Virus genome (UHGV): UHGV-0071990
From: a virus
Length of the DNA stretch: 18,057 nt
Reading direction: 5' to 3' (one strand)
The notes under the pieces were generated by a model. The model was not told where the DNA came from and made no database searches. It was given only the letters and a program-made list of their open reading frames with translations. Positions 1 through 17,907 of the stretch are shown here, piece by piece. The position numbers and the translations under genes are program-made. Positions within the stretch are counted from its first letter, which is position 1. The number at the start of each line of letters is the position of its first letter.

Positions 1-532
1 CACCATAACCGATAGCCCCCCTTCAGACACACCCCCCCCTCCCCCCAGACAGGGTGCCCTTTACCGGAGTTCCGGCCCCTTCTCAAAAGCATCAAAAAAA
101 GCTCGAGATCGAGTACCGGAACTCATGCCACCAGATAGCTCCACATCGTTTCCAATGCTTCGCCGCCGTGTGCGCCCTGTGGCCCACAATCATGCCATTG
201 GTCGTCTGATATACCTTCTTCTGCTCATTGAGCACAGGCGAGTTGTCGCACTCCTGCCTTTCTCAGACTCGACTTAGTTTAGATCGCTGTTCCTGGCTTG
301 CGTCAGCACACTTTCCCCTTGTACGCATACCCGCGCGCCACTTCGCCCAAAAACACCGAACCCAACGAAGTGGCAAAGACAACGACGCGAGCGTGAGTCT
401 GAAATGGGCACCAGTAAAAAAGGGGTTGCAGGCGCAAAAAGATTTGATTATCTTTAGACGCAAGAAAGCCGCCCCAATCAAGAGGTGTCTTTTTAAATCC
501 AGCCTACCAAGCAAGATTTAAATTTCAGACTG

Positions 533-557
533 AAAACCGCCCGGCAAGGCGGTTTTT
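533..557. terminator. GC-rich hairpin (AACCGCC-loop-GGCGGTT) flanked by an A-run upstream and T-run downstream; possible bidirectional intrinsic terminator
   Basis: Seen directly: aaaaccgcccggcaaggcggtttttgtctttc. It lies just downstream of the minus-strand HTH gene ending at 618 and at the end of the low-coding region 1-530. Confidence 0.5.
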
Positions 558-617
558 GTCTTTCTGGCGCTTACATTACACCACCATAAAACGATCCGTA
601 AAGGATCATTTGATCCC

Positions 618-878
618 TTATTCCAATTCTGACGACACTTTAACCTTTTCCCATACAAGGGTTTGCAGCCTTAACAGAATCGCATCTTTATCAAGGTGTG
701 AAAGATCCTTAACCATATCGTCAAACGACAGAACGCGAATGGCCATCTCAATGACCCTCGGCGGCTCACCCTTCTCATATCGCTTATATGTAGCCAACGA
801 TATCCCAAACTCTTCGGCGGCTCGCTCCTGCGTCCAGTTCATCCCACGACGCCATAATTTCAATTCGTAACCCGTCAT
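618..878 (-). CDS. XRE/Cro-CI-type helix-turn-helix transcriptional regulator (86 aa)
   Basis: Translation MTGYELKLWRRGMNWTQERAAEEFGISLATYKRYEKGEPP has the typical HTH_XRE signature. ATG at 878 is preceded by AGAGGA. It is divergent from the gene at 980. Confidence 0.8.
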   Translation of the reverse strand: MTGYELKLWRRGMNWTQERAAEEFGISLATYKRYEKGEPPRVIEMAIRVLSFDDMVKDLSHLDKDAILLRLQTLVWEKVKVSSELE

Positions 879-979
879 TACATCCTCTACCTTTCCCTAG
901 ATATTCAATAAATTAGACATAGCCACTCACAACAAAGTAAGATGTATTAACAATCCAATCTTTAGGCTTTAGGTAAAAA

Positions 980-1405
980 ATGAGTTCATCTGCTTTTGTC
1001 ACCGTGGTCACTGGTGTAAGTGTTTTTGTTCTAGGCCAACTCATCGTCAAAGGAGCTATTGAGCCTTACATTTCATTCAGGGAACAACTAGGGAAAATAT
1101 CCAATCTGTTATTGTGTAACCAAGCAAAAATAGTGAATTCTGGCTCGAACTTAAAGCCAGAAATCATTCATGATCTAAAAGATTCCGCAGCACAATTAAT
1201 GGCGAAATATTCCACTTTACCTTTCTATATCAAAAAGTTACATATCGGCTTTCGTCTTGTTCCATCAGCCACCGAGATTCTTGGGGCAGCTCGAAATTTG
1301 AACTATATAGCGTCAATACATGAAGGTAAGACTGGGGAGAATCCATCTAAGCATCTCGAAGAGATTGGCCATATGCTCAAAATACCAACTACCTATTCAA
1401 GCTAA
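980..1405 (+). CDS. Hypothetical small membrane-anchored protein (141 aa) with one N-terminal hydrophobic helix; low-GC cargo gene
   Basis: ORF has an ATG with an AGGT Shine-Dalgarno-like motif upstream. The N-terminus AFVTVVTGVSVFVLGQLIV is hydrophobic. Local GC is visibly lower than the flanks. I recognise no family. Confidence 0.55.
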   Translation: MSSSAFVTVVTGVSVFVLGQLIVKGAIEPYISFREQLGKISNLLLCNQAKIVNSGSNLKPEIIHDLKDSAAQLMAKYSTLPFYIKKLHIGFRLVPSATEILGAARNLNYIASIHEGKTGENPSKHLEEIGHMLKIPTTYSS

Positions 1406-1473
1406 CCCAATGTAAGTTATCGGCTTGCCCCACAATAAGTTATCTATCTTCAAACGCCCCTATATTAACACTC

Positions 1474-1498
1474 GCAAAGTGTCAAAATGACACTTTGC
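1474..1498. terminator. Perfect 11-bp inverted repeat (GCAAAGTGTCA-AAA-TGACACTTTGC) between convergent genes; hairpin, possible terminator or protein-binding site
   Basis: Seen directly. There is no strong T-tract on either side, so terminator function is uncertain. Confidence 0.35.
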
Positions 1499-1507
1499 GC
1501 ATTGTGT

Positions 1508-1888
1508 TTACTTAACGAGGAATAAAAATGGTTTATCGTTCGGCGGTGTAATCGGGGCTGGCTCGCTTTTGCTCATGCGATCAGTGTACCAGGCCAACTC
1601 CTTGTCAAAGTAAGCCTGATTAAAATAGGCCATGAATGTGGTTTCAAATCCATAACGACCGCTAATACGCAGCATCTGATTGCCGTTCTCTGTTTCCAGA
1701 TATACCTGGGCACGTTCCTGATTCTCCTTCAGCCAGGTTAAAGCCTCGTCGCACGAGGACACACGATACTCATCATCGTAGCCGTCATCGATGCGGCTTG
1801 AAGAAGAACGGCAAATCACGCCAACAGAACCAGCCAGGATAGTTTGAATTTTAAGGAAAGCGTTTTTGCGGATTTTGATCATGCTCAT
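1508..1888 (-). CDS. Hypothetical protein (126 aa), unknown function
   Basis: ORF with ATG at 1888 preceded by GGAGA at appropriate spacing. It has its own upstream intergenic region (1889-2007). No family recognised with confidence. Confidence 0.6.
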   Translation of the reverse strand: MSMIKIRKNAFLKIQTILAGSVGVICRSSSSRIDDGYDDEYRVSSCDEALTWLKENQERAQVYLETENGNQMLRISGRYGFETTFMAYFNQAYFDKELAWYTDRMSKSEPAPITPPNDKPFLFLVK

Positions 1889-2007
1889 CGGGTTATCTCC
1901 GGTTTAACCAGGGCGGGTATCGCTCGGTTTCGGGTATAACCTTAGGAAATTTTTTCCCATCTGTAAAGCAGTTTTATATAAATCTATAATTATATAATTC
2001 TATGAGC

Positions 2008-2035
2008 ACAAAAAAGCCCCTTTGCAACAGGGGCT
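2008..2035 (-). terminator. Rho-independent terminator for the toxin-antitoxin operon
   Basis: Hairpin AGCCCCT-ttgcaac-AGGGGCT. On the minus strand it is followed by a T-run (plus-strand A-run 2010-2014). It sits 16 bp downstream of the antitoxin stop. Confidence 0.6.
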
Positions 2036-2050
2036 TATCATTCGTTCTGA

Positions 2051-2350
2051 TCAGATGTTAAACGCTATTCGTTTTCCTGTGGGAAGCTCAACATCCAGGC
2101 TTAATTTGCCTCCCATAGCTTCAACGTAACGCTTTAATGTCGCCAGCTTTAAATCATTTCCGCGCTGCTCCAGCTTTGTTACTGCTGGCTGACTAATACC
2201 CATCGCCTCAGCAACCTGTTTTTGTGATAACTGGAGTTCTTCACGCATCATCTGCAAGCCGACCTCAAGAATCATCTCATCTGCCATTTCTTTAATTCGC
2301 GCCTGGCTTTCCGGTGAACGGCTGGCAATCACCTCATCTAATGTTCTCAT
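2051..2350 (-). CDS. HTH (XRE-type) antitoxin of a type II toxin-antitoxin pair, HigA-like addiction-module antidote (99 aa)
   Basis: HTH motif LSQKQVAEAMGISQPAVTKLEQRG. Its start overlaps the stop of the upstream toxin gene by 1 nt (TAATG). Toxin-first gene order is typical of HigBA-type modules. Confidence 0.8.
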   Translation of the reverse strand: MRTLDEVIASRSPESQARIKEMADEMILEVGLQMMREELQLSQKQVAEAMGISQPAVTKLEQRGNDLKLATLKRYVEAMGGKLSLDVELPTGKRIAFNI

Positions 2351-2697
2351 TACTTGCTCTCCAGTGTGTTCAGATGTGCTGCAAACTCATCCTCAGCTAT
2401 ACGCACCAGTTTTTTATAAAACCGCTTATCGTTACTTTTGTCTCCTGCACAAAGAACGATAGCCCGGCGAATCGGATCGAACGCATAAAAGGCTCTTATC
2501 GGACGGCCAGAAAACTGAACGCGAAGCTCTTTCATATTTTTGTACCGAGAACCTTTTACGGTATCGGCATATGGCCTGGGTAACTCAGGTCCGTAAACCT
2601 GTAGATTTTTCAAATCAGCCAAAACCTTTTCCTGAAGAGCGTCTTCTTGCTCATTTAGCCAGTCGTCAAATCGCTGGCTAAAAAGTACCGTCCACAT
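2350..2697 (-). CDS. RelE/ParE-superfamily (HigB-like addiction-module killer) toxin, about 115 aa
   Basis: Translation has the conserved pattern of this family (KELRVQFSGRPIRAFYAFDPIRRAIVLCAGDKSNDKRFYKKL). The likely true start is the ATG at 2697, preceded by AGGA; the ORF track extends to a TTG at 2703. Confidence 0.8.
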   Translation of the reverse strand: MWTVLFSQRFDDWLNEQEDALQEKVLADLKNLQVYGPELPRPYADTVKGSRYKNMKELRVQFSGRPIRAFYAFDPIRRAIVLCAGDKSNDKRFYKKLVRIAEDEFAAHLNTLESK

Positions 2698-2706
2698 GAT
2701 CAATCC

Positions 2707-2752
2707 TATAACCTGTGGTTTATATCACTAACTATATAACCCGTAGGTTATA
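2707..2752. promoter_or_regulatory. Two palindromic operator-like sites (TATAACC-n3/4-GGTTATA) in the toxin-antitoxin promoter region
   Basis: Seen directly: tataacctgtggtttata (2707-2724, imperfect) and tataacccgtaggttata (2735-2752, perfect 7-bp arms). They lie immediately upstream of the toxin start, as expected for antitoxin autoregulation. Confidence 0.45.
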
Positions 2753-2941
2753 ATTTCAAGAAAAACGGGGCTATTTAACATAATGGACGTTATCGGCACC
2801 ACCGGATCACCGTTCATTGTCGGATCTAAAAAATCCGCTCAAAAGATCATGTTTTCCTGGGCGTTTTCCACCGTTTTTTATGTTGCTTATTTGTTAATGA
2901 GATCTCGTTTTCAGTTTCGCCTCATTTTCGACGCGAAAGCC

Positions 2942-3232
2942 CTATTTTTGTGACTTTACTCCTGGCATATGGACTTCCCAGCGCCGAATCCCCATAGCTG
3001 CGCAAAAATCAGCCACATAATTCAATCCCGCCCATTCGCGGATACCACCGCGGGCTTTTTCAATGAAAACGGCAATCCCTTTTTTATTGAGAGCAAAAAG
3101 CCGCCAGCTTTTTGTCACTTCGTCCTGGGTAGCCACAACACAAGTGAAAGCTCCCATGCGATACAGGTCCAAGAACTCTTTGCGTGTTTTGCGTACAAGT
3201 TCCACAACAAACCTCATATTTGCATGTTTCAA
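2942..3232 (-). CDS. Hypothetical protein (91-96 aa), second gene of a two-gene operon
   Basis: ORF whose start region (TTG 3232 or ATG 3217) overlaps or abuts the stop of the upstream gene (TGA at 3229-3231), suggesting translational coupling. There is no obvious Shine-Dalgarno motif. No family recognised. Confidence 0.5.
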   Translation of the reverse strand: MKHANMRFVVELVRKTRKEFLDLYRMGAFTCVVATQDEVTKSWRLFALNKKGIAVFIEKARGGIREWAGLNYVADFCAAMGIRRWEVHMPGVKSQK

Positions 3233-3528
3233 ACATCTGTTTTGTTATCAATGAAGATTAATCCCAACCCAGCGAAGTAACACAGCAGCGCCCAGGCTGC
3301 ATACGGAATGCTGGATCTGGATGTGGACTCCTTTAACATCTGCCAATTGCGAACATTGCGACTGTCTTTTAGGCCAAGTTTTTTAGCCAACTGCGAGCCA
3401 CTCATTCCAGTCAGGCCAATGACTGCCCGAACTTCTCCACATGTAGGAGATTCCCATTCATCCGCTTTTTTTAAACAAGCCGGATTCAACATTTTTAAAA
3501 CAGTATCTTTATCCATAATCATCTCCAT
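3229..3528 (-). CDS. Putative HTH DNA-binding protein with a C-terminal hydrophobic segment (95-99 aa)
   Basis: HTH-like stretch RAVIGLTGMSGSQLAKKLGLKDSRNV and hydrophobic C-terminus IPYAAWALLCYFAGLGLIFI. The likely start is the ATG at 3516, preceded by GGAG. A palindrome TAGGAAA-tct-TTTCCTA sits at 3547-3563 just upstream. Confidence 0.55.
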   Translation of the reverse strand: MEMIMDKDTVLKMLNPACLKKADEWESPTCGEVRAVIGLTGMSGSQLAKKLGLKDSRNVRNWQMLKESTSRSSIPYAAWALLCYFAGLGLIFIDNKTDV

Positions 3529-3724
3529 TTATTACATCTACGATGGTAGGAAATCTTTTCCTATGTGGCAATAAAAATTTACCACGTTTCGTATAAGACA
3601 AGTTTTCTATGCCTAATAGGAAATGATGATTCTTACGTTTTATCACGTTCTGATGGCTACTGTGTGCGTATTTATCAACGTTTATTGATAAGGCTCGCCC
3701 CTTCCTCCTGCAAAGCCCGGCCGT

Positions 3725-3876
3725 AGGCCTTATTTCGGCCTTATATAAATTGATTTTGTATAGTTCGAAACGCGCCGTTTCGAAAAGAATGATCAGGCTG
3801 CTCCATGCCTCCGGCAAGTGCCGGAGGAGGTATATTTGAGCGTAGCGACTCGAACCGGCGCGAGCTTTAGCTCGCT
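3725..3876. repeat. Cluster of four GC-rich hairpins in an otherwise AT-rich intergenic region
   Basis: Seen directly: AGGCC-ttatttc-GGCCT (3725-3741); TTCGAAACG-cgc-CGTTTCGAA (about 3765-3785); CCTCCGG-caagtg-CCGGAGG (about 3808-3827); GCGAGC-ttta-GCTCGC (3861-3876). Function unknown. Confidence 0.4.
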
Positions 3877-3899
3877 GCAAGGGCGAACATATTCACAGG

Positions 3900-4159
3900 C
3901 AAAGCCTGCGTAAGTTAAATAAAGAAAGTCTTAATAAAAGAAAGTGATTTTGCATTTATTTGTTTAGTGCATCTATTATAAAAAACCATTTGCATATACA
4001 TATCAAAACTGTGGATAACTTAATTAGCCGATGCCTGTAAAGGCGATATTTACGCTGTGTTCAGGTTTAGAGAAAATTAACTTAGATTATTTTTTGAACA
4101 GATATTTTATTGCGACGTAGATAATCCTCCGGTAAAACCGGATTCATCATTCAGGTGGG
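3900..4159. other. Candidate plasmid-type replication origin (oriR-like): AT-rich region immediately downstream of repA
   Basis: Very AT-rich stretch located 3' of the RepA gene, which is where oriR lies in IncFII replicons. It contains a perfect DnaA box. No ORF of 60 aa or more is present. Confidence 0.4.
4010..4018 (-). promoter_or_regulatory. Consensus DnaA box (TTATCCACA on minus strand)
   Basis: Plus strand reads TGTGGATAA at 4010-4018, a perfect 9/9 match to the DnaA box consensus. Confidence 0.5.
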
Positions 4160-5008
4160 TTAATGTTGAAGTGATTTCCAGGTCTTTCTTAGCCTGTTAT
4201 AACGCTGCTCAACGAGGGAGCGTAAATATGCAAGGTCAGCACCAGGATACATGCCATCAGCAAACTCCTGGCTAACCTCTCTAGTGATTTGATGACGAAG
4301 TTCGGCCTCTCCCTTTTCCCGGACAAGACGCGCAGCTCTCTCCGCTGCTTTCTGTTTTGCCTTTATCTCTCTGGCCGTCTTCCTCTGACGCCATACATTC
4401 TCCATCTGCTCCTGAATAACAATACGCTTATAATCAGCCTCCGTTATCGCTTTTTTAAGCCGTTCGCTATTCTTCGCATTGAAGTAATTAAGTTTCTGGC
4501 TAACCGCACGTCTCCATGCTTGTTCAGTAATACCAACGGTTTCCAGCAGTTGATCACGAATCTCTATTTTCGCTGGCCAATACTGTTTATTCACCCGATC
4601 CCAGCGACGTTCATAATCAATAAAACCTAACGCTTTCAGTTGCGACAACGCCCTTGTACAGCGCGTTATAGACTTGTTCCCAGCTTCAGATACGGTAGAC
4701 AGGCCGCAAAAATCAGCCAACGCCTCAGCACTAGCCAGAACCCGCTTAGAAATGATGTTTACATGGTGCAAAATCGCAGCGATCACAGCATTAATCGCCC
4801 GACGACGATGCTCGTTTATCCGGCGCTTCCGCTCTGACGGTTGATTAACGTAGAACGCAACCTCACACGTAAGATCACGCCCATTAATGCGCTGTAAAGC
4901 ATCAGATAACACCAGTGGCAGCTTGTGCGTATGGTGCTTTGGAGGCTGGAACTCCGGCGATAAATTACAAACGTAAGCTGAACGTAGAGACGGCATTGGT
5001 CTATCCAT
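4160..5008 (-). CDS. repA: Plasmid replication initiator, IncFII RepA-family (about 282 aa from ATG at 5008)
   Basis: Translation contains RRAINAVIAAILHH...CGLSTVSEAGNKSITRCTRALSQLKALGFIDY and a basic, coiled C-terminus, which resembles the R1/R100 RepA1 protein as I remember it. The ORF track extends in-frame to 5170, but the ATG at 5008 gives the expected size. Confidence 0.75.
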   Translation of the reverse strand: MDRPMPSLRSAYVCNLSPEFQPPKHHTHKLPLVLSDALQRINGRDLTCEVAFYVNQPSERKRRINEHRRRAINAVIAAILHHVNIISKRVLASAEALADFCGLSTVSEAGNKSITRCTRALSQLKALGFIDYERRWDRVNKQYWPAKIEIRDQLLETVGITEQAWRRAVSQKLNYFNAKNSERLKKAITEADYKRIVIQEQMENVWRQRKTAREIKAKQKAAERAARLVREKGEAELRHQITREVSQEFADGMYPGADLAYLRSLVEQRYNRLRKTWKSLQH

Positions 5009-5018
5009 ATGTTCGCTC

Positions 5019-5046
5019 TTGCGTCCACGGAAAACCAACGTATAAT
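5019..5046 (+). promoter_or_regulatory. Sigma70-like promoter (-35 TTGCGT, 16-bp spacer, -10 TATAAT) directing transcription antisense to the repA leader
   Basis: Seen directly: ttgcgt at 5019-5024 and tataat at 5041-5046. Together with the terminator at 5105-5135 it defines a roughly 80-nt transcript. Confidence 0.5.
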
Positions 5047-5052
5047 GGGAGT

Positions 5053-5135
5053 TGTCGAGGCGCCCATGGATTGTTTTGTTGGTTTTCCGTGGATGTCGCA
5101 AGAAGCCCGCAGATTTATCTGCGGGCTTTTTGTTT
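5053..5135 (+). ncRNA. Putative CopA-like antisense RNA complementary to the repA mRNA leader (copy-number control)
   Basis: Promoter at 5019-5046 followed about 60 nt later by a strong intrinsic terminator. The unit lies 45-130 nt upstream of the repA start on the opposite strand, the same layout as CopA/CopT in IncFII plasmids. The transcription start is inferred, not observed. Confidence 0.5.
5105..5135 (+). terminator. Rho-independent terminator (GCCCGCAGA-ttta-TCTGCGGGC followed by TTTTTGTTT)
   Basis: Seen directly: a perfect 9-bp stem, 4-nt loop and T-tract on the plus strand. Confidence 0.65.
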
Positions 5136-5174
5136 CCATATCTGGTCAGTTTCCAACCAGACACCCACAATCGT

Positions 5175-5191
5175 AACCACGTTACGTGGTT
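5175..5191. promoter_or_regulatory. Perfect 17-bp palindrome (AACCACGT-T-ACGTGGTT) upstream of repA; candidate operator
   Basis: Seen directly, between the invertase stop (5321) and the repA leader. Confidence 0.3.
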
Positions 5192-5320
5192 TTAAGAGAA
5201 CTCTACCACAACACTTTCGGTCATGCACGAAGTCTCTCGCTAATCGAACGATAATCCACCAGTAAAAGGATCTAAATCGGATCTCGTGTTGCGAGCATCA
5301 TACTACTGGTCTTACTCCAG

Positions 5321-5875
5321 TCAATGATTCCCAGCCGGAAACCTGCGGTAAAGCGTGGATAAAGCAACATCGAAGATAATCGCTATCTGTTTACGTGAAA
5401 CACCATTCGCAATAAGCCTTCCGACCTGTTCCCATTGCTCTGGAGCCAGTTTTGAGCGGCGCCCCCCTATCCTGCCGTTAGCCCTTGCCACCGCTAATCC
5501 CGCACGCGTTCTTTCAATAATATTTTCCCGCTCCATTTCTGCGACCGCACTCAGCATTGTGTAGGCAAAGCGGCCAATTGATGTGCTAATTTTTATTCCT
5601 TCTGTAACAGAAATAAACTCAATGTTGTTTGATAAAAAATAGTTAAGTAATTCAACAAGATGAATCAGAGAACGTCCCATTCTGTCCAGCTTCCAGACAA
5701 TAACCGTATCGCCCGGCCGTAACGCTTTTATCAGCTTATCCAGTCCTGGTCGTTTTGACTTCGCGCCAGATATTTTATCTTCAAAAATCCGGTCACATCC
5801 TGAACTCCTGAGCGCTTCCAGTTGTAATTCCAAATTCTGGTCAAAAGTTGACACTCTCGCATAGCCGTATTGCAT
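5321..5875 (-). CDS. Serine-recombinase DNA invertase of the Hin/Gin/Cin/Pin family (184 aa)
   Basis: N-terminal catalytic motif GYARVSTFDQNLELQ, then VWKLDRMGRS, AEMERENIIERTRAGL, GRIGGRR and a C-terminal HTH (RKQIAIIFDVALSTLYRR), all collinear with Gin/Pin as I remember them. It lies directly adjacent to a crossover site. Confidence 0.93.
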   Translation of the reverse strand: MQYGYARVSTFDQNLELQLEALRSSGCDRIFEDKISGAKSKRPGLDKLIKALRPGDTVIVWKLDRMGRSLIHLVELLNYFLSNNIEFISVTEGIKISTSIGRFAYTMLSAVAEMERENIIERTRAGLAVARANGRIGGRRSKLAPEQWEQVGRLIANGVSRKQIAIIFDVALSTLYRRFPAGNH

Positions 5876-5939
5876 ACTTTCTAACCCGCAATTGTTGCTA
5901 AAAGCGGGAAAAAATATCGTTCAGACGACACGGAGGCAA

Positions 5940-5965
5940 TTCTCAAAAACCTCGGTTTGCAGGAA
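5940..5965. promoter_or_regulatory. 26-bp invertase crossover site 1 (gix/cix/pix-like), core TC at 5952-5953
   Basis: TTCTCAAAAACC-TC-GGTTTGCAGGAA. The inner half is a perfect inverted copy of the inner half of site 2, and the outer half matches 9 of 12. It resembles the gix consensus TTCCTGTAAACCGAGGTTTTGGATAA. Confidence 0.8.
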
Positions 5966-6943
5966 ACGATAAACAAGGCTGGTAACGCCGTCCAAAAGAC
6001 AGGTGATGACTTATCAGGTGGACTTACTTTTACAAACGATTCAGTCCTTGCTTGGGGGAGAAATACTGACAGCGCAAAAATCGGATTTAAAAATGATGCC
6101 GACAGCGACACTGATTCATACATGTGGTTTGAAACGGGAGATAACGGCAATGAATATTTCAAATGGAGAAGCAAACAAAGCACAACAACAAAAGACCTGA
6201 TGACGCTGAAATGGGATGCGCTAAATATTCTTGTTAATGCCATTGTAAATGGCGAAGTCATATCAAAATCAGCAAACGGCCTCCGTATTGCTTACGGTAA
6301 TTACGGATTCTTTATTCGTAATGATGGTTCAAACACATACTTCATGTTGACAAACTCCGGTGACAACATGGGGACTTATAACGGATTAAGGCCATTATGG
6401 ATTAATAACTCTACTGGCGCTGTTTCGATGGGGCGTGGCCTTAGTGTTTCAGGAGAGACATATTCAGACCGTTTTGCGATTAATAGCGGCAACTCCATGT
6501 GGGTTGATATGCGCAAACAGAATGTCATTTTTGGCCGTAATGCGGTATCTAACGACAGTGCCCAGGCATTGTTACGTCAGGACCATAAAGATCGCAAATT
6601 TATGATTGGCGGTCTGGGAAATAAGCAATTTGGCATCTACATGATTAATAACTCAAGGACAGCCAATGGTACTGACGGTCAGGCGTATATGGACAATAAC
6701 GGTAACTGGCTTTGTGGTTCACAAATTATTCCCGGAAATTATGGAAATTTTGATTCCCGCTATGTGCGTGACGTTCGTATGGGAGCTAACCAGAGCGGAA
6801 TAAAATGGGGTGGTGAAGGTGGAACACTCCCGGCGGGGTATGTTCTTACAGGAGGTAACTTTGATGATGACTGGGAGTGGCCTGTTTATGCGCCCGTCCA
6901 GAAATATATTAATGGTCAGTGGTACAATGTAGGACGTGCTTAA
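5954..6943 (+). CDS. Silent alternative tail-fiber C-terminal cassette (about 329 codons, no own start)
   Basis: The open frame begins at the crossover with [15 protein letters not shown], paralleling GLQETVNQAAGALQK in the expressed fiber. It ends with the conserved C-terminal motif [11 protein letters not shown] (expressed copy: INGTWYNAGSI). It has no upstream start or Shine-Dalgarno motif. Confidence 0.8.
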
Positions 6944-6944
6944 T

Positions 6945-7472
6945 ATGCAGCATTTAAAAAATATTAAAGCAGGAAATCCAAAAACCATCGAACAGTATCA
7001 ACTTACAAAAGAATTTGATGTTGTCTGGTTATGGTCGGAAGACGGTAAGAACTGGTATGAGGAACAAAAGAATTTTCAGCCAGACACGTTAAAAATGGCA
7101 TATAACCAGGAGGGTATTATTTGCTGCATAGAGAAAGACGTATCCCTGATTAACCCGGAGGGAATGAGTGTGATTGAGTTACCCAATATTACGGCAAACC
7201 GACGCGCTGATATTTCCGGCAACTGGATGATTAAGGATGGTGCTGTAATTAAAAGAGTCTATACAGAAGATGAATTACAACAGCAGGCTGAATCACAAAA
7301 AGCAGCTTTGCTTTCCGAAGCTGAATCAGTCATCCGGCTGCTGGAACGTGCCGCCAGGATGAATCTGGCAACAGATGAGGAACGTACACGGCTGGATGGC
7401 TGGGAACGCTACAGCGTTCTGCTCAGCCGCGTGGATACGGCAAATCCAGAATGGCCACAAAAGCCTGAATAA
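6945..7472 (+). CDS. tfa: Tail fiber assembly chaperone, cognate to the silent cassette
   Basis: [20 protein letters not shown]... is closely paralogous to the 7499..8032 protein (shared [40 protein letters not shown] motifs). It starts 2 nt after the cassette stop. Confidence 0.85.
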
Positions 7473-7477
7473 AAAAT

Positions 7478-7495
7478 AAGGCCCGAACGGGCCTT
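7478..7495. terminator. Bidirectional hairpin terminator between the convergent tail-fiber assembly genes
   Basis: AAGGCCC-gaac-GGGCCTT with an A-run upstream and T-rich sequence downstream. Confidence 0.5.
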
Positions 7496-7498
7496 CTC

Positions 7499-8032
7499 TC
7501 ATTCTGGTTGTTCGGGGAACGTGACTGGCAGGACGGAGGTATCCGTAGACTCTACTTTCTGCGCGTAGAGCAGCCACTCGGTCAATTTTTGTTTATTCTC
7601 AGCAGAAATAATTCCAAGTCGTAGCTGAGAATCCCATAGCTGAGTTTTATCCCTGACGAGTTGTAACAGGTTTTGCTTCTCATTTTCCGCCTGTTGTCTC
7701 TGTTCTTCTTCGGTATATTCCCGCTTTATCACTGCGCCATCTTTGAACATCCAGTTACCAGAAATATCGACTCGCCTATTGGCTGTAATATCAGGAACCT
7801 CAACAACGCTTAAACCTTCAGGATTAATTGTCGATACATCCTTATCTACAGCCACAATGATTCCATCGGCAGTGTAAGCAAATTTTATTGTATCTTCCTG
7901 AAAGTTTTTCTGTTCCTCATACCAGTTTCTATCGTCATTAGAATACAACCAGACAACACCAAATTGTCGTGTTAATTCATATTGCTCTACGGTTTTGGGA
8001 TTTCCTGATTTGATATTTTTTAAATGCATCAT
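7499..8032 (-). CDS. tfa: Tail fiber assembly chaperone, cognate to the expressed fiber C-terminus
   Basis: MMHLKNIKSGNPKTVEQYEL... is paralogous to the 6945..7472 protein. It lies 2 nt downstream of the tail fiber stop. Confidence 0.85.
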   Translation of the reverse strand: MMHLKNIKSGNPKTVEQYELTRQFGVVWLYSNDDRNWYEEQKNFQEDTIKFAYTADGIIVAVDKDVSTINPEGLSVVEVPDITANRRVDISGNWMFKDGAVIKREYTEEEQRQQAENEKQNLLQLVRDKTQLWDSQLRLGIISAENKQKLTEWLLYAQKVESTDTSVLPVTFPEQPE

Positions 8033-8034
8033 AA

Positions 8035-10347
8035 TTAAATACTTCCCGCATTATACCAGGTGCCATTGATACAATATTGCACTGGCCTTGCCTGTGTTGT
8101 ATCAATAAGTTCATCTTTGTTTGAGTTAACGGAACCTGTAACAACGTAACCAGATTTATCGCCCCAGCCCGGACCATTCCATGTTTGCGCTGATGATTTT
8201 GTACCTAATCGAATACCTGTAATAAATCGTGAATTACATTCCGCTTTAGTATATGCCCCAACATCTGCTGCTGAAGGTTTTCTGGTTGTGGTGTAAAACT
8301 CTGACCAGTCAGCCTCGAAGCCATAACCATCACGCGCTGAACGATAATAAATCCCACCGTTCTTATAATTTACGCGGAACTGTACAGCAGGGCAGCTCCC
8401 CGCGTTCATATTGAAGTGGAGGATTAATGTCGATGCGCCACCAATATTTGCGTTATATACCCCGCTATTCCAGTTCCAGCCAACAGCTTTATCATTTCCG
8501 ACAGTGCTTCCTGTTATCCCTAAAGCAAAAGCGGCCTGCTGATTTTTCGTGTTGTAGTCACGTCGCCAGCCAGGTAAATACTCTGAACCATGGTTAATAT
8601 ATATAAATTGTGCATTAGTGGTGCCACCACCGCTAGAGGTACTCGGTGTGGTTATACGAATGGTCATGGCGCCTTTATGGCCCATAACTTCAATAACACA
8701 ACCCGCAAGGTGAATAAGTCCACATCCGGTGTCAGTAATAATTTTATTATTGCCGTATGACCATGAGCATTTACACAGCCAGTATGGATGATTGAAGGCC
8801 CATTGAGATTCCAGCCATTCGATAAATTGTGCCGTTGTCCAGTTCCCTGCTCCTGTGCTGATAGAGCTATGAAAAGAGCGGCAAGCACCTATTGTTTGCG
8901 TAAATTTATCTTTGTTTGGAATATCTGCGCCGTTCTGGTCTTTCTGCAATGCGCCAGCGGCCTGATTTACCGTTTCCTGCAAACCGAGGTATTCGATAAC
9001 GGCGGCAACGGTCGCTTTAGCCAGAATATCCCGCCCGACTTTTGTCAGAGTTGCCAGGCTGGCGGTGTCATTCCCTGTAAAATACGGAAACCTGTCTGCC
9101 GCAGTAGCAAGCCCGGCCAGCGCCGTCAGGGTGGCGTCTTTCGGCTGCTTGCCCGCAAGCGCGTTGGTCATAGTGGTCGCAAAGTTCGGGTCATTGCCCA
9201 GTGCCGCAGCCAGCTCGTTCAGCGTATTCAGTGCGTCAGGTGATGAGTCTACAAGTGCGGCAATCGCGGCCATAACGAACGCCGTGTTTGCTATCTGAGT
9301 ATTGTTAGTACCCTTTGGCGCAGTTGGTGTTGTTGGCGTTCCGGTCAGTGCCGGGCTGTTCAGGGGCGCTTTCTTGTTCGTTTCATCCATTACCGCCTTA
9401 ACCGCTTTCGATGTTGCGGCCAGTGTTTCAGACGTGCTGTTGGTCGCACTACTAAGCTGAGTGATGCCTCTTACTGTCAGTGAAGCTACAGGCACATTTG
9501 TAATCTGATTCCACGAATGCGTGTGATTGGAAGGAGCCTTTCCGGCCGCAAGATCATACGCTTCCTTAACAGCCTTTGGTGTTGCTGCTAGCGTTTCAGA
9601 CGTGCTATTGGTAGCGCTACTGAGCTGAACAATCCCTTTTCGCGCTGTGGTAGCGTCCTGTGCGGTGTATTTGCTATTAGCCAGGTCATATGCCTCCTTA
9701 ACAGCCTTAGGCGTCGCAGCAAGCTTTTCAGACGCGCTATTGGTGGCGCTACTAAGTTGAACAAAGCCTTTTGAGGTTAAAGTTGCATCAGGATGATTAC
9801 GTGATTGCTCATGTTTCACAATGGCTTGCTTAAGCCGCTTTGCTGAAACAGCAAGGGAATCATCTGTACCTGCATCAATTTCTTGTTCATTAGCAAATCT
9901 TGCTACCCCAACAACAGTTTCGGTCGCGGGAGGATTAATAAACTCAATATCACCAAATGTAATATTTTTAGTATCAAGAGTCTTAATTGCTATATCACTT
10001 GATATTAAAGCGATAGTAGATGATGCTTTATTTATTATTGCTTGTTCTTGTGAGTATACAGCAAACAAGGTTCCCTTATTCGTATACAATCCTATTGTAT
10101 GGACAACATACTCATCTTTACTATCATCCTTCGCCGTTACATGAATTGTATCAGGGGAAACAACTTTGCCACCTATTGTAGTAAGTCGTTTTATTTCGTT
10201 TGTTATATTTGTTTGTGAGGTTGACGTGACATAATATCTACTACCTAAACCAACAGAAACAATCTCAACTTTATTTGTTCCTGTTTTGTTGGCATTAACC
10301 AGCTCCTGACGCCCGGCATCAGTCATCGTAAATAATAATTTACTCAC
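8035..10347 (-). CDS. Phage tail fiber protein (770 aa) in its currently expressed orientation; constant region to about codon 454, variable C-terminus inside the invertible segment
   Basis: A long ORF directly after the gpI-like gene, with internal tandem repeats typical of fibers. The crossover site lies in-frame at codon 454 (IEY-L-GLQET). It is followed by a tail-fiber assembly gene. Confidence 0.9.
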   Translation of the reverse strand: MSKLLFTMTDAGRQELVNANKTGTNKVEIVSVGLGSRYYVTSTSQTNITNEIKRLTTIGGKVVSPDTIHVTAKDDSKDEYVVHTIGLYTNKGTLFAVYSQEQAIINKASSTIALISSDIAIKTLDTKNITFGDIEFINPPATETVVGVARFANEQEIDAGTDDSLAVSAKRLKQAIVKHEQSRNHPDATLTSKGFVQLSSATNSASEKLAATPKAVKEAYDLANSKYTAQDATTARKGIVQLSSATNSTSETLAATPKAVKEAYDLAAGKAPSNHTHSWNQITNVPVASLTVRGITQLSSATNSTSETLAATSKAVKAVMDETNKKAPLNSPALTGTPTTPTAPKGTNNTQIANTAFVMAAIAALVDSSPDALNTLNELAAALGNDPNFATTMTNALAGKQPKDATLTALAGLATAADRFPYFTGNDTASLATLTKVGRDILAKATVAAVIEYLGLQETVNQAAGALQKDQNGADIPNKDKFTQTIGACRSFHSSISTGAGNWTTAQFIEWLESQWAFNHPYWLCKCSWSYGNNKIITDTGCGLIHLAGCVIEVMGHKGAMTIRITTPSTSSGGGTTNAQFIYINHGSEYLPGWRRDYNTKNQQAAFALGITGSTVGNDKAVGWNWNSGVYNANIGGASTLILHFNMNAGSCPAVQFRVNYKNGGIYYRSARDGYGFEADWSEFYTTTRKPSAADVGAYTKAECNSRFITGIRLGTKSSAQTWNGPGWGDKSGYVVTGSVNSNKDELIDTTQARPVQYCINGTWYNAGSI
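8974..8999. promoter_or_regulatory. 26-bp invertase crossover site 2, core GA at 8986-8987, inside the tail fiber coding sequence
   Basis: TTCCTGCAAACC-GA-GGTATTCGATAA. Bases 8971-8990 are the exact reverse complement of 5949-5968. Confidence 0.8.
9390..9790. repeat. Three imperfect tandem repeats (about 140-160 bp each) within the tail fiber constant region
   Basis: The DNA motif ccttaac(a/c)gc...gtttcagacg(t/c)gct(a/g)ttgg...gc(a/g)ctact(a/g)ag(c/t)tga recurs near 9398, 9557 and 9698. It encodes the repeated peptide QLSSATNS(A/T)SE(K/T)LAAT(P/S)KAVK. Confidence 0.6.
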
Positions 10348-10959: not shown

Positions 10960-12076
10960 CCTCTAACCCCGCATACTGGCAATTTATGTTTCTCTCTCTG
11001 GCAACCTGCGTCTCTCCAACTACAGTAAATACAGGACTTGATATTTCTAATCTCTTAGCCCCGGCATTTTTCAAACGTTGAATAATTTCATCTGGATTTA
11101 TATCTCTTCCCATAACAGAACGTTGCCATTGTTTATACTCATCAATAGCTTTCTCGACCTCACTTTGAATTAATGTTGTTCGGTTTTTATCCGATGAGTT
11201 AATCCAGTATTTAATTATTATATCGTATTCAATGGTATCTGGTTTCTTAACAAGAACTTTATCTGTGAATGGCCGAATATTAGTTGCCGAGAGGACGCTA
11301 TTTATCTGCTCTAATAATTCATCAGATGGTATATCTCCATTCTCTAGCAAAGAACGGATTTCTACAGTTCCTGGAGATGGTGTATATACATTCACATCCT
11401 TTATATTCTGATTTGCTGTTCTTGTCCAATATTTATAAGAATCCTCTGGCCCTGCTGTAGATAGTTTTTCCGGCGATAATTTTATTCTTTCAGCATAATT
11501 ATTATCTGACTCTATATCGGCACCAGAATTAGATGTTGTTAAATTCCTTACGCTGGAAACATACGGTAATGGAGTCACCAACTCGTTAATTTGCCCAGGT
11601 AAAAAACCATTCCCTGATGAGCCAGGTATAAGAGCATATCCAGAGACTGTACCAACTGTTTTTCCTGCGGGGATTTCCAACAATATATCTGTTTGGAAAA
11701 TAACACCATTTCCAGTTGAAACCTGAGTACCAGCAGGGATTGTATATATCCCTGACAATTTTGTTGACAGATTAAACTCAAATGTAGTTAATGCAGATTG
11801 AGCCTCCAACCTAGGTGTATCCGTCAGATGGCCTATATGGTCGAGATATTCACCTTCACCATATGTAAGAAGATTTTGTTTTGCAGAAAAATCGATAGCT
11901 TTTCTTTGCTGTATAATAACCTCACACAATGACAAGATGAATAATCTACGTGGATCAGCAGGTGCTAATGTTTCATCTGTTATACTCTCAAAAGCCCTGA
12001 TTGCACGAGTTGTTATATCAGTCGGGTTAGAATCTGCGAAAGTAATATCTGGCAAACCACCGCGCGGCAACTTCAT
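10952..12076 (-). CDS. Baseplate J-like protein (374 aa)
   Basis: Size and position immediately after the gp25/W-like gene, with a 4-bp overlap (ATGA-type coupling). The sequence is consistent with the baseplate J family. Confidence 0.8.
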   Translation of the reverse strand: MKLPRGGLPDITFADSNPTDITTRAIRAFESITDETLAPADPRRLFILSLCEVIIQQRKAIDFSAKQNLLTYGEGEYLDHIGHLTDTPRLEAQSALTTFEFNLSTKLSGIYTIPAGTQVSTGNGVIFQTDILLEIPAGKTVGTVSGYALIPGSSGNGFLPGQINELVTPLPYVSSVRNLTTSNSGADIESDNNYAERIKLSPEKLSTAGPEDSYKYWTRTANQNIKDVNVYTPSPGTVEIRSLLENGDIPSDELLEQINSVLSATNIRPFTDKVLVKKPDTIEYDIIIKYWINSSDKNRTTLIQSEVEKAIDEYKQWQRSVMGRDINPDEIIQRLKNAGAKRLEISSPVFTVVGETQVARERNINCQYAGLEDG

Positions 12077-17476: not shown

Positions 17477-17907
17477 TTAATCCTCATTAAACACGTCAAT
17501 CCAGGCGACGATTCGCCTCAACCGAAGCGAAAGCCAGTAGGATATAGGTGTTGATTGAGATGATTGAGATAGAGAACTCGCGGCCCTCATTATTTGCTTA
17601 TCAATAGGTTTTTTCTCATCAAAACCTACGAGAGCAAAAAATTCTGTACCTTTTGGCAAACTTTAACAAAGTCTTTCGCTGGCAATCCATTCAGATACTC
17701 TATCGGACGGCCAATACAGCGAGCAGCCAGAGCAACATGGACTTTATGATCAAGTGATGTTTGAACTGTAACATGCCCTTGAGATTGCAGTAAGTCTGAT
17801 ACTTCTAAAATATCGCTGCCTTTTAGTTTGTCTAAATCAAGGTTGAGTTCAGTCACCGGCTCGAAGTCTTCAAAACGATACTCTTTACTTAATTTAACGG
17901 TTTCCAT
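17477..17907 (-). CDS. Tail assembly chaperone, predicted -1 frameshift fusion product (about 140 aa)
   Basis: The -1 frame is open from the slippery site to a TAA at 17477, 6 bp before the tape-measure ATG. This is the same architecture as P2 E/E' and lambda G/GT. Confidence 0.6.
17626..17907 (-). CDS. Tail assembly chaperone (93 aa), zero-frame product
   Basis: A small acidic ORF directly upstream of the tape measure gene. ATG at 17907 is preceded by AAGGTGA. It ends with a slippery heptamer. Confidence 0.7.
   Translation of the reverse strand: METVKLSKEYRFEDFEPVTELNLDLDKLKGSDILEVSDLLQSQGHVTVQTSLDHKVHVALAARCIGRPIEYLNGLPAKDFVKVCQKVQNFLLS
17635..17641 (-). promoter_or_regulatory. Programmed -1 ribosomal frameshift slippery heptamer T_TTT_TTG
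   Basis: The minus strand reads CAG AAT TTT TTG CTC TCG TAG in the zero frame, and the heptamer T TTT TTG is 3 codons before the stop. The plus strand has CAAAAAA at 17635-17641. Confidence 0.65.

Follow-up and report, generated by a model that had tools for sequence, protein, structure and literature searches.

Inversion switches of the type found in the phage Mu G segment have been known since the late 1970s. Programmed tail-fibre inversions have already been catalogued systematically, including those of Mu-homologous prophage fibres, which were confirmed with long reads (PMC9881135). Here we analyse an 18,057-nucleotide stretch of the virus genome UHGV-0071990 (the window, for short), which is 100% identical to the human-gut-metagenome contig ERR525694 k127_9614. 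We are confident that the region around its tail fibre gene is an invertible host-range switch of the Gin type with two states, that it is orthologous to the Mu G and P1 C segments, and that its carrier is a ~48-kb myovirus phage-plasmid. It adds no mechanism beyond the textbook Mu G-segment switch. What it does show is that the classic Gin/G-segment host-range switch also occurs in a widespread family of ~48-kb phage-plasmids; we found no paper in the searchable literature that describes it there. For these elements, the prediction of fibre and host as well as the assembly of the plasmid depend on the orientation of the segment: contigs break at the crossover sites, and in automated annotations the silent cassette ends up as a partial gene or pseudogene.

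The segment carries two alternative 3′ ends for the fibre gene, which we call cassettes A and B, each with its own assembly chaperone gene, and a constant N-terminal part of the fibre (Sc) lies outside it. When compared with the annotated Mu G and P1 C segments, its DNA is 80–81% identical over 76–78% of the query (flanks included), and it also matches D108, D6, P7 and SfMu. At the protein level, cassette B shows 82% identity with Mu S′ and 86% with P1 Sv′, and for chaperone B the values are 80% with Mu U′ against 55% with Mu U. Cassette A reaches 80% with the variable parts of both Mu S and P1 S, and its chaperone 76% with Mu U against 58% with Mu U′. Since the cassette and chaperone in the expressed position are the S′/U′-like ones, the window is in a G(−)-like state, with cassette B predicted to be expressed and cassette A to be silent. 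Cassette A is 90–97% identical to Mu/P1 S along most of its length and only ~30% identical in one distal block of 40 residues at the tip, and its receptor may therefore differ from that of Mu G(+). Sc is 57% identical to part of the P1 S constant region, over 285 residues.

Anatomy of the switch

The features of the locus are collected in Table 1. Read as the reverse complement of its coordinates, site 2 is TTATCGAATACCTCGGTTTGCAGGAA. Both sites consist of two 12-bp half-sites around a central TC, TTCTCAAAAACC/TC/GGTTTGCAGGAA in site 1 and TTATCGAATACC/TC/GGTTTGCAGGAA in site 2, and they lie in inverted orientation. Of the 26 positions of Mu gix (TTATCCAAAACCTCGGTTTACAGGAA), each site matches 23, the central TC among them. 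A preliminary description of this DNA had proposed two inverted, gix/cix/pix-like sites of 26 bp at exactly these places, the second of them inside the fibre gene at codon 454, and both proposals are borne out: the codon CTC (8988–8986) holds the central TC of site 2. The exact core shared by the two sites is 20 bp long (5949–5968 and 8971–8990), and the inverted repeat around them extends to 58 nt at 76% identity (repeat finder, I2).

Table 1. Coordinates of the predicted components of the switch in the window
Feature	Coordinates	Strand	Remarks
Putative Fis-dependent recombinational enhancer	5791–5853	−	Two Fis-consensus 15-mers in the 5′ end of the invertase gene
Gin/Cin-type serine DNA invertase, 184 aa	5321–5875	−	Pfam Resolvase (2.9e-45) and HTH_7
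Crossover site 1 (gix-like, invertase-proximal)	5940–5965	+	TTCTCAAAAACCTCGGTTTGCAGGAA; central TC at 5952–5953
Fibre 3′ cassette A (Mu S / P1 S-like), predicted silent	5951–6943	+	330 codons from LGLQET; Gp34_trimer domain
Assembly chaperone A (Mu U-like), 175 aa, predicted silent	6945–7472	+	Caudo_TAP 5e-34
GC-rich hairpin between the convergent chaperone genes	7478–7495		Terminator-like match on the − strand: AAGGCCCGTTCGGGCCTT then ATTTTTTATT
Assembly chaperone B (Mu U′-like), 177 aa, predicted expressed	7499–8032	−	Caudo_TAP 2.7e-34
Variable part B (Mu S′ / P1 Sv′-like), residues 454–770, predicted expressed	8035–8988	−	Weak gp37_C domain
Crossover site 2 (gix-like), in the fibre gene	8974–8999	−	Codons ~450–458; central dinucleotide at 8986–8987
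Constant N-terminal part Sc, residues 1–453	8989–10347	−	Three Phage_fiber_2 repeats (open reading frame and Pfam)

A 17-bp core occurs at exactly two places in the window even when three mismatches are allowed, against a chance expectation of 0.03. The further crossover-like sites that would have pointed to a multi-inversion system, raised as a possibility in the preliminary description, did not turn up: neither a search allowing up to 8 mismatches to the 26-mer nor a scan for palindromic centres found a third site in the window, and a weak half-site at 7189–7202 has no partner half. With two sites and two cassettes only, we rejected a multiple-inversion system for this stretch.

The fibre open reading frame (ORF; 8035–10347, minus strand) encodes 770 residues from a GTG start with an AAGGA Shine-Dalgarno sequence 7 nt upstream; an alternative ATG at 10326 has no Shine-Dalgarno sequence. 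Inverting 5949–8990 in silico produces an uninterrupted fibre ORF of 783 residues, identical to the 770-residue fibre through residue 459, which reproduces the earlier claim that a C-terminus of 316 residues would be replaced after codon 454 by one of 329, with the frame kept through LGLQET. Cassette A has neither a start codon nor a promoter of its own, and a sigma-70 promoter scan found no strong promoter for it and fewer matches than in shuffled sequences; cassette A and chaperone A are both intact ORFs. Each variable part is followed by its own Caudo_TAP chaperone gene, the two converging at the centre of the segment, and with one such gene per cassette (6945–7472 and 7499–8032) inversion would swap the cognate chaperone along with the C-terminus, as had also been claimed. 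The hairpin between the two genes is likely to act as the terminator for whichever cassette is expressed.

The assertion that both pairs are clearly diverged paralogs fits the chaperones, which are 55% identical with their divergence concentrated in the C-terminal third, and does not extend throughout the fibre parts, which are 24.5% identical globally, are aligned by BLAST over the first ~30 and the last ~64 residues only, and match different Pfam domains (Gp34_trimer on A, gp37_C on B). By analogy with Mu and P1, it is reasonable to suppose that the two orientations confer two receptor specificities.

Sc itself varies in length among relatives. The three Phage_fiber_2 repeats correspond to three copies of a 93-nt unit at 9380–9772; the Escherichia albertii protein P0001 lacks one 44-residue unit, and the fibre of L014 has 689 residues, suggesting that fibre length varies through the gain and loss of repeats.

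The invertase gene is transcribed away from the segment, as is Mu gin, and starts 64 bp from site 1. The preliminary description had recognised a Gin/Pin-like invertase next to this site, an assignment that its Resolvase and HTH_7 domains support, and had given the gap as 65 bp, one too many. The protein is 57% identical to both Mu Gin and P1 Cin, which are 77% identical to each other. Its residues 2–181 align without gaps to the Gin crystal structures 3UJ3 and 4M6F (E=5e-63), a stronger match than that to gamma-delta resolvase (E=1e-31). Ser9, the DRxGRS motif (here DRMGRS) and Met114 are all conserved; in Gin, Ser9 is the nucleophile, and replacing Met114 by Val makes the enzyme Fis-independent (PMC3575834). 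The ORF is intact.

A Fis-dependent enhancer is likely to reside within the 5′ end of the invertase gene. Two 15-mers matching the Fis consensus lie at nt 23–37 and 71–85 of the gene, 48 bp apart, and the same two positions (nt 23 and 71) are matched in Mu gin and P1 cin; both fall inside the enhancer annotated in P1 (cin nt 19–90), and both were matched in only 3 of 20,000 shuffles. Tempering this, the consensus is degenerate, with ~4.6 chance matches expected per 555 nt, and the region is also constrained as coding sequence.

Taken together, these components suggest the following mechanism. Invertase dimers would bind the two 26-bp gix-like sites, which would then synapse on supercoiled DNA with the enhancer in the invertase gene, itself bound by Fis; the reaction would presumably depend on both Fis and enhancer. 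Both sites would be cut at the central TC, the strands rotated by 180 degrees and religated, and ~3,034 bp would be flipped. Sc (residues 1–453), read from the late tail operon, would be joined to one of two partners, cassette B with its chaperone or cassette A with its own. Such a flip would replace the distal third of the tail fibre and, with it, the chaperone dedicated to that part, so that lysates would contain particles of two adsorption specificities. In this scheme the anatomy, the homology, the preserved frame and the occurrence of both states in nature are observed, and the role of the enhancer, the rate of switching and the receptors are inferred.

Evidence for inversion in nature

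Support for inversion in nature is indirect but strong, and comes from relatives on the one hand and from assemblies on the other. Among the relatives, one contig (L016) encodes an identical invertase protein, carries the segment in the opposite orientation and ends at the site. The plasmids pFDN11_2 and pRHB23-C01_4 have colinear flanks that are 95–98% identical and the same segment, 93–94% identical, inverted; pE100248_50 and pFDN11_2 likewise carry the segment in opposite orientations. Sc is 92–97% identical in relatives whichever cassette is attached to it.

Both fusion states thus occur in nature, and protein databases tell the same story. When the predicted flipped fibre was compared with 5.8 billion proteins, we found many full-length fusions of Sc to an A-type cassette, on ~48-kb contigs and up to 91% identical; no protein in that set matched the exact flipped fibre of this element at 100%. 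Block by block, the E. albertii protein P0001 is 96–100% identical to it, apart from a single block at 90% and the missing 44-residue repeat. At the corresponding locus (L012), the stretch equivalent to window 5940–7456 is present at 95% identity, inverted, and abuts a 97%-identical Sc at the site, so that the cassette and chaperone that are silent in the window are there fused in frame to Sc. IMG/VR contains 66 contigs in which the Sc-side half-site leads into an A-type cassette and 38 in which it leads into a B-type one; a count of all four junctions was uninformative on the invertase side, where the outer half-site is nearly absent (0 and 2 matches).

L012 itself is a 440-kb contig (GCA_037910785.1) with sites at 11217 and 14068 and chromosomal-looking neighbours (ZinT, GGDEF, Lactamase_B). 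The second of its cassettes differs and is shorter, and past the second site no invertase gene was called; this copy may represent a derivative that has integrated or is decaying. Separately, two E. fergusonii records on opposite strands were rejected as a flip, being merely reverse-complemented records.

The relatives also locate the exchange. In all seven family members compared, each outer half-site remains attached to its own flank, whereas an A/G variant of the inner half-site (site position 20) moves with the cassette in L002, L003 and L010, and since it travels in this way, exchange is bounded to approximately positions 10–19 of the site, around the central TC.

Assemblies provide the second line of evidence, in the form of signatures of mixed orientation. 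In the metagenome assembly ERZ28665518, a backbone scaffold of 45,985 bp is 99.98% identical to window 1–5968 and ends exactly at 5968, and a separate scaffold of 3,042 bp corresponds to window 5949–8990 at 100% identity. In a de Bruijn graph, a backbone edge that stops at the inner end of the shared repeat, together with a segment edge running between the outer ends of its two copies, is expected only when either flank is joined to both cassettes in the reads, with all four junctions present; the repeat alone would not explain the breaks, because 20 bp cannot break an assembly with k >20. The Logan assembly of the window's own run, ERR525694, likewise contains a separate contig of 3,052 bp covering 5939–8990. 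Logan assemblies use k=31, and at this setting the contig ends fit the parental junctions plus the junction between the invertase flank and cassette B, as for a minority flipped form. Other contigs end at or near the same points: L021 and L022 at 5968, L017 at 5972, the isolate contig L019 (45,787 bp) at 5947, and the segment-only contigs L026, L027 and L028 at 8990.

Two independent Logan contigs, L025 and L028, both begin at 6190, and homology with the relatives L001–L004 breaks inside cassette A at 5994–6253, which suggests a mosaic boundary or a variant branch point within the cassette.

Could these flips arise by RecA-dependent homologous recombination across the 58-nt repeat, or simply reflect mixtures of strains, without the invertase? 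We consider this very improbable. The repeats do share 20 exact bp and are 76% identical over the 58 nt, and the two best assembly signatures come from metagenomes, where mixtures are possible. Exact identity over 20 bp is, however, at or below the minimal substrate for efficient RecA exchange, and a dedicated invertase lies adjacent to its cognate gix-like sites. The exchange interval derived from L002, L003 and L010 contains the central dinucleotide. As for mixtures, ERZ28665518 is 99.98–100% identical to the window, so any "two strains" in it would differ only by the flip.

Several observations nevertheless weigh against inversion by the invertase as we have described it. In L004 (pRHB23-C01_4; sites at 2975–3000 and 6047–6072), the position-20 variant remains on the flank side, which would fit an exchange deeper within the repeat and speaks for the RecA reading; mutation and gene conversion are other possible sources of this exception. 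The ERR525694 Logan contig implies only one of the two flipped-state junctions. Four assemblies of a related plasmid, all derived from E. coli ATCC 25922, show a single orientation, as do two equal-sized Gambian plasmids (pE100248_50 and pE100117_50), and we therefore rejected isogenic flips among complete assemblies. Slow switching, or consensus assembly hiding minority forms, may explain these uniform orientations, which give the switch no positive support.

The same uniformity is what one would see if the element had inherited a Mu/P1-like architecture in which the switch no longer operates, the fibre having been fixed in its present state because the invertase had little or no activity, the enhancer was lost or the sites had drifted. 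Each site does differ from gix at 3 of 26 positions, the module has been lost entirely from many relatives, and the E. albertii segment has no called invertase gene adjacent to it. We nonetheless regard such a frozen state as unlikely. The invertase ORF is intact with its catalytic and regulatory residues conserved, the cores of the two sites are identical to each other, and the silent cassette and chaperone have kept their reading frames. Furthermore, backbone and segment assemble apart at the repeat both in an element 99.98–100% identical to the window and in the window's own run, and an identical invertase is encoded by elements in both orientations. The invertase-driven switch in this element is probably active.

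The carrier family and the possible mobility of the module

Circular plasmids of ~48 kb from E. coli, E. fergusonii and E. albertii make up the family to which the window belongs, and their flanks are 94–97% identical to it; homologues of the fibre protein on ~48–52-kb contigs add Salmonella to the hosts. The element is also present in isolates, among them GCA_039864335.1 (99.99% identical) and GCA_040935765.1. Family plasmids carry an IncFII-type RepA, ParA, a toxin–antitoxin pair of the RelE/HigB type and a P2-like contractile tail module. The tail module downstream of the switch is complete and intact, with tape measure, baseplate V/W/J/I and tube genes. Members of the family have been deposited as the Yersinia phages vB_YpM_39, 41 and 44 (host Yersinia pestis EV76), and from these deposits we conclude that the family makes virions; a literature search found no paper mentioning the three phages. 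As a name for the family, neither pSLy3, which belongs to the SSU5 supergroup, nor vB_YpM_HQ103, a 32-kb phage, was accepted, and the published papers that we found on "phage-like plasmids" were set aside as descriptions of the family since they concern P1-like elements.

These properties bear on what the switch is for. Inversion by the cryptic-prophage serine recombinases PinQ and PinR is reported to inhibit T2 adsorption (PMC12529663; bioRxiv 10.1101/2025.03.28.646004), and the module here might by the same token mainly serve the host, its inversion products blocking the adsorption of other phages. We judge this to be extremely improbable: the tail module downstream is complete, close relatives have been isolated as infectious phages, and the cassettes are orthologous to the parts of the Mu and P1 fibres that determine host range. 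The reading as a phage host-range switch is the one that we retain.

The commonest relatives lack both the invertase and the segment, and homology with the window breaks at 5352 and 9554. In the same slot they have (L008) a single fixed fibre of 948 residues, one chaperone and a "transferase". This suggests that the switch behaves as a replaceable module of ~4.2 kb. We raise more tentatively, as a possibility that we would not favour at present, that this unit (invertase, segment and distal Sc; ~5353–9553) is a portable host-range module re-assorted among elements. Flanks that are 95–98% identical carry cassettes that are 44–94% identical, with homology breaking at the sites, and the Sc-side half-site is found in ~100 IMG/VR contigs, while the invertase-side half-site is almost private to the family. 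If the idea were correct, the module would have been gained, lost and re-assorted among phage-plasmids and Mu-like, P1-like and P2-like phages, and the gix-like sites together with the conserved end of Sc would serve as junctions for exchange between elements, beyond their role in intramolecular inversion.

Some neighbouring features are recorded here for completeness. On the minus strand at 2051–2703, a RelE/HigB-type toxin (2350–2703) and a helix-turn-helix antitoxin (2051–2350) are so annotated in relatives. The likely true start of RepA is nt 5008, giving 282 residues as called in L013, and between it and the invertase gene lies a leader (5008–5320) with two perfect or near-perfect hairpins (5024–5039/5078–5093 and 5099–5114/5117–5132), the second of which is followed by TTTTTG on the plus strand. 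These hairpins could represent a CopA-like antisense countertranscript controlling the IncFII-type repA; Rfam gave nothing at gathering score in the window, and weak generic hairpin matches in the repA leader only. Just upstream of the tape-measure gene, two small overlapping ORFs (17477–17907, minus strand) occupy the slot in which P2-like phages have the frameshifted pair of tail-assembly chaperones, and relatives annotate one of the two as a "phage tail assembly protein". Finally, the E. coli ATCC 25922 plasmid record NZ_CP032086.1 (94,204 bp) is about twice as long as the other ATCC 25922 records and has twice the number of matching places, a dimer or a duplication during assembly being the probable explanation.

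Comparison with Mu, P1 and other inversion systems

The closest counterpart of this locus is the Mu G segment. The two share the order Sc / site / Sv U > < U′ S′v / site / outward invertase, a segment of similar length (here ~3.0 kb) with 80.6% identity across its DNA, sites identical at 23 of 26 positions to gix with a central TC, cassettes and chaperones that are 76–82% identical, and the positions of the Fis-consensus matches in the 5′ end of the invertase gene. They differ in that the invertase here is only 57% identical to Gin, and in that Sc has 453 residues rather than ~170 and resembles P1 S and P2-type fibres. The carrier here replicates as a plasmid and has a P2-like tail, whereas Mu is a transposable phage, and repA takes the place of com/mom beside the invertase.

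The P1 C segment is similar in other respects. P1 is also a phage-plasmid, its Sv′ and Sv are 86% and 80% identical to the variable parts here, its chaperones 78–80% and its Sc 57%, and the enhancer annotated within cin occupies the same positions of the gene. In contrast, the P1 segment is 4.2 kb long and has inverted repeats of 0.6 kb and longer variable parts; cin is transcribed towards the segment, with cixL overlapping its 3′ end; the cix core is TT rather than TC; and the replicon and virion modules are unrelated.

More distant systems share parts of this design. Din-family invertases cross-complement, and e14 P/Pin, Shigella PinB/D/F and Salmonella Hin/hix also combine a small Fis-dependent serine invertase with 26-bp sites; Hin, unlike the enzyme here, switches a promoter and not the 3′ end of a coding sequence. 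The p15B Min system and the R64 shufflon likewise use DNA inversion to vary the C-terminus of a receptor-binding protein, but they do so with at least 6 crossover sites and many cassettes, and the shufflon with the tyrosine recombinase Rci, in contrast to the two sites and two cassettes of the switch described here.

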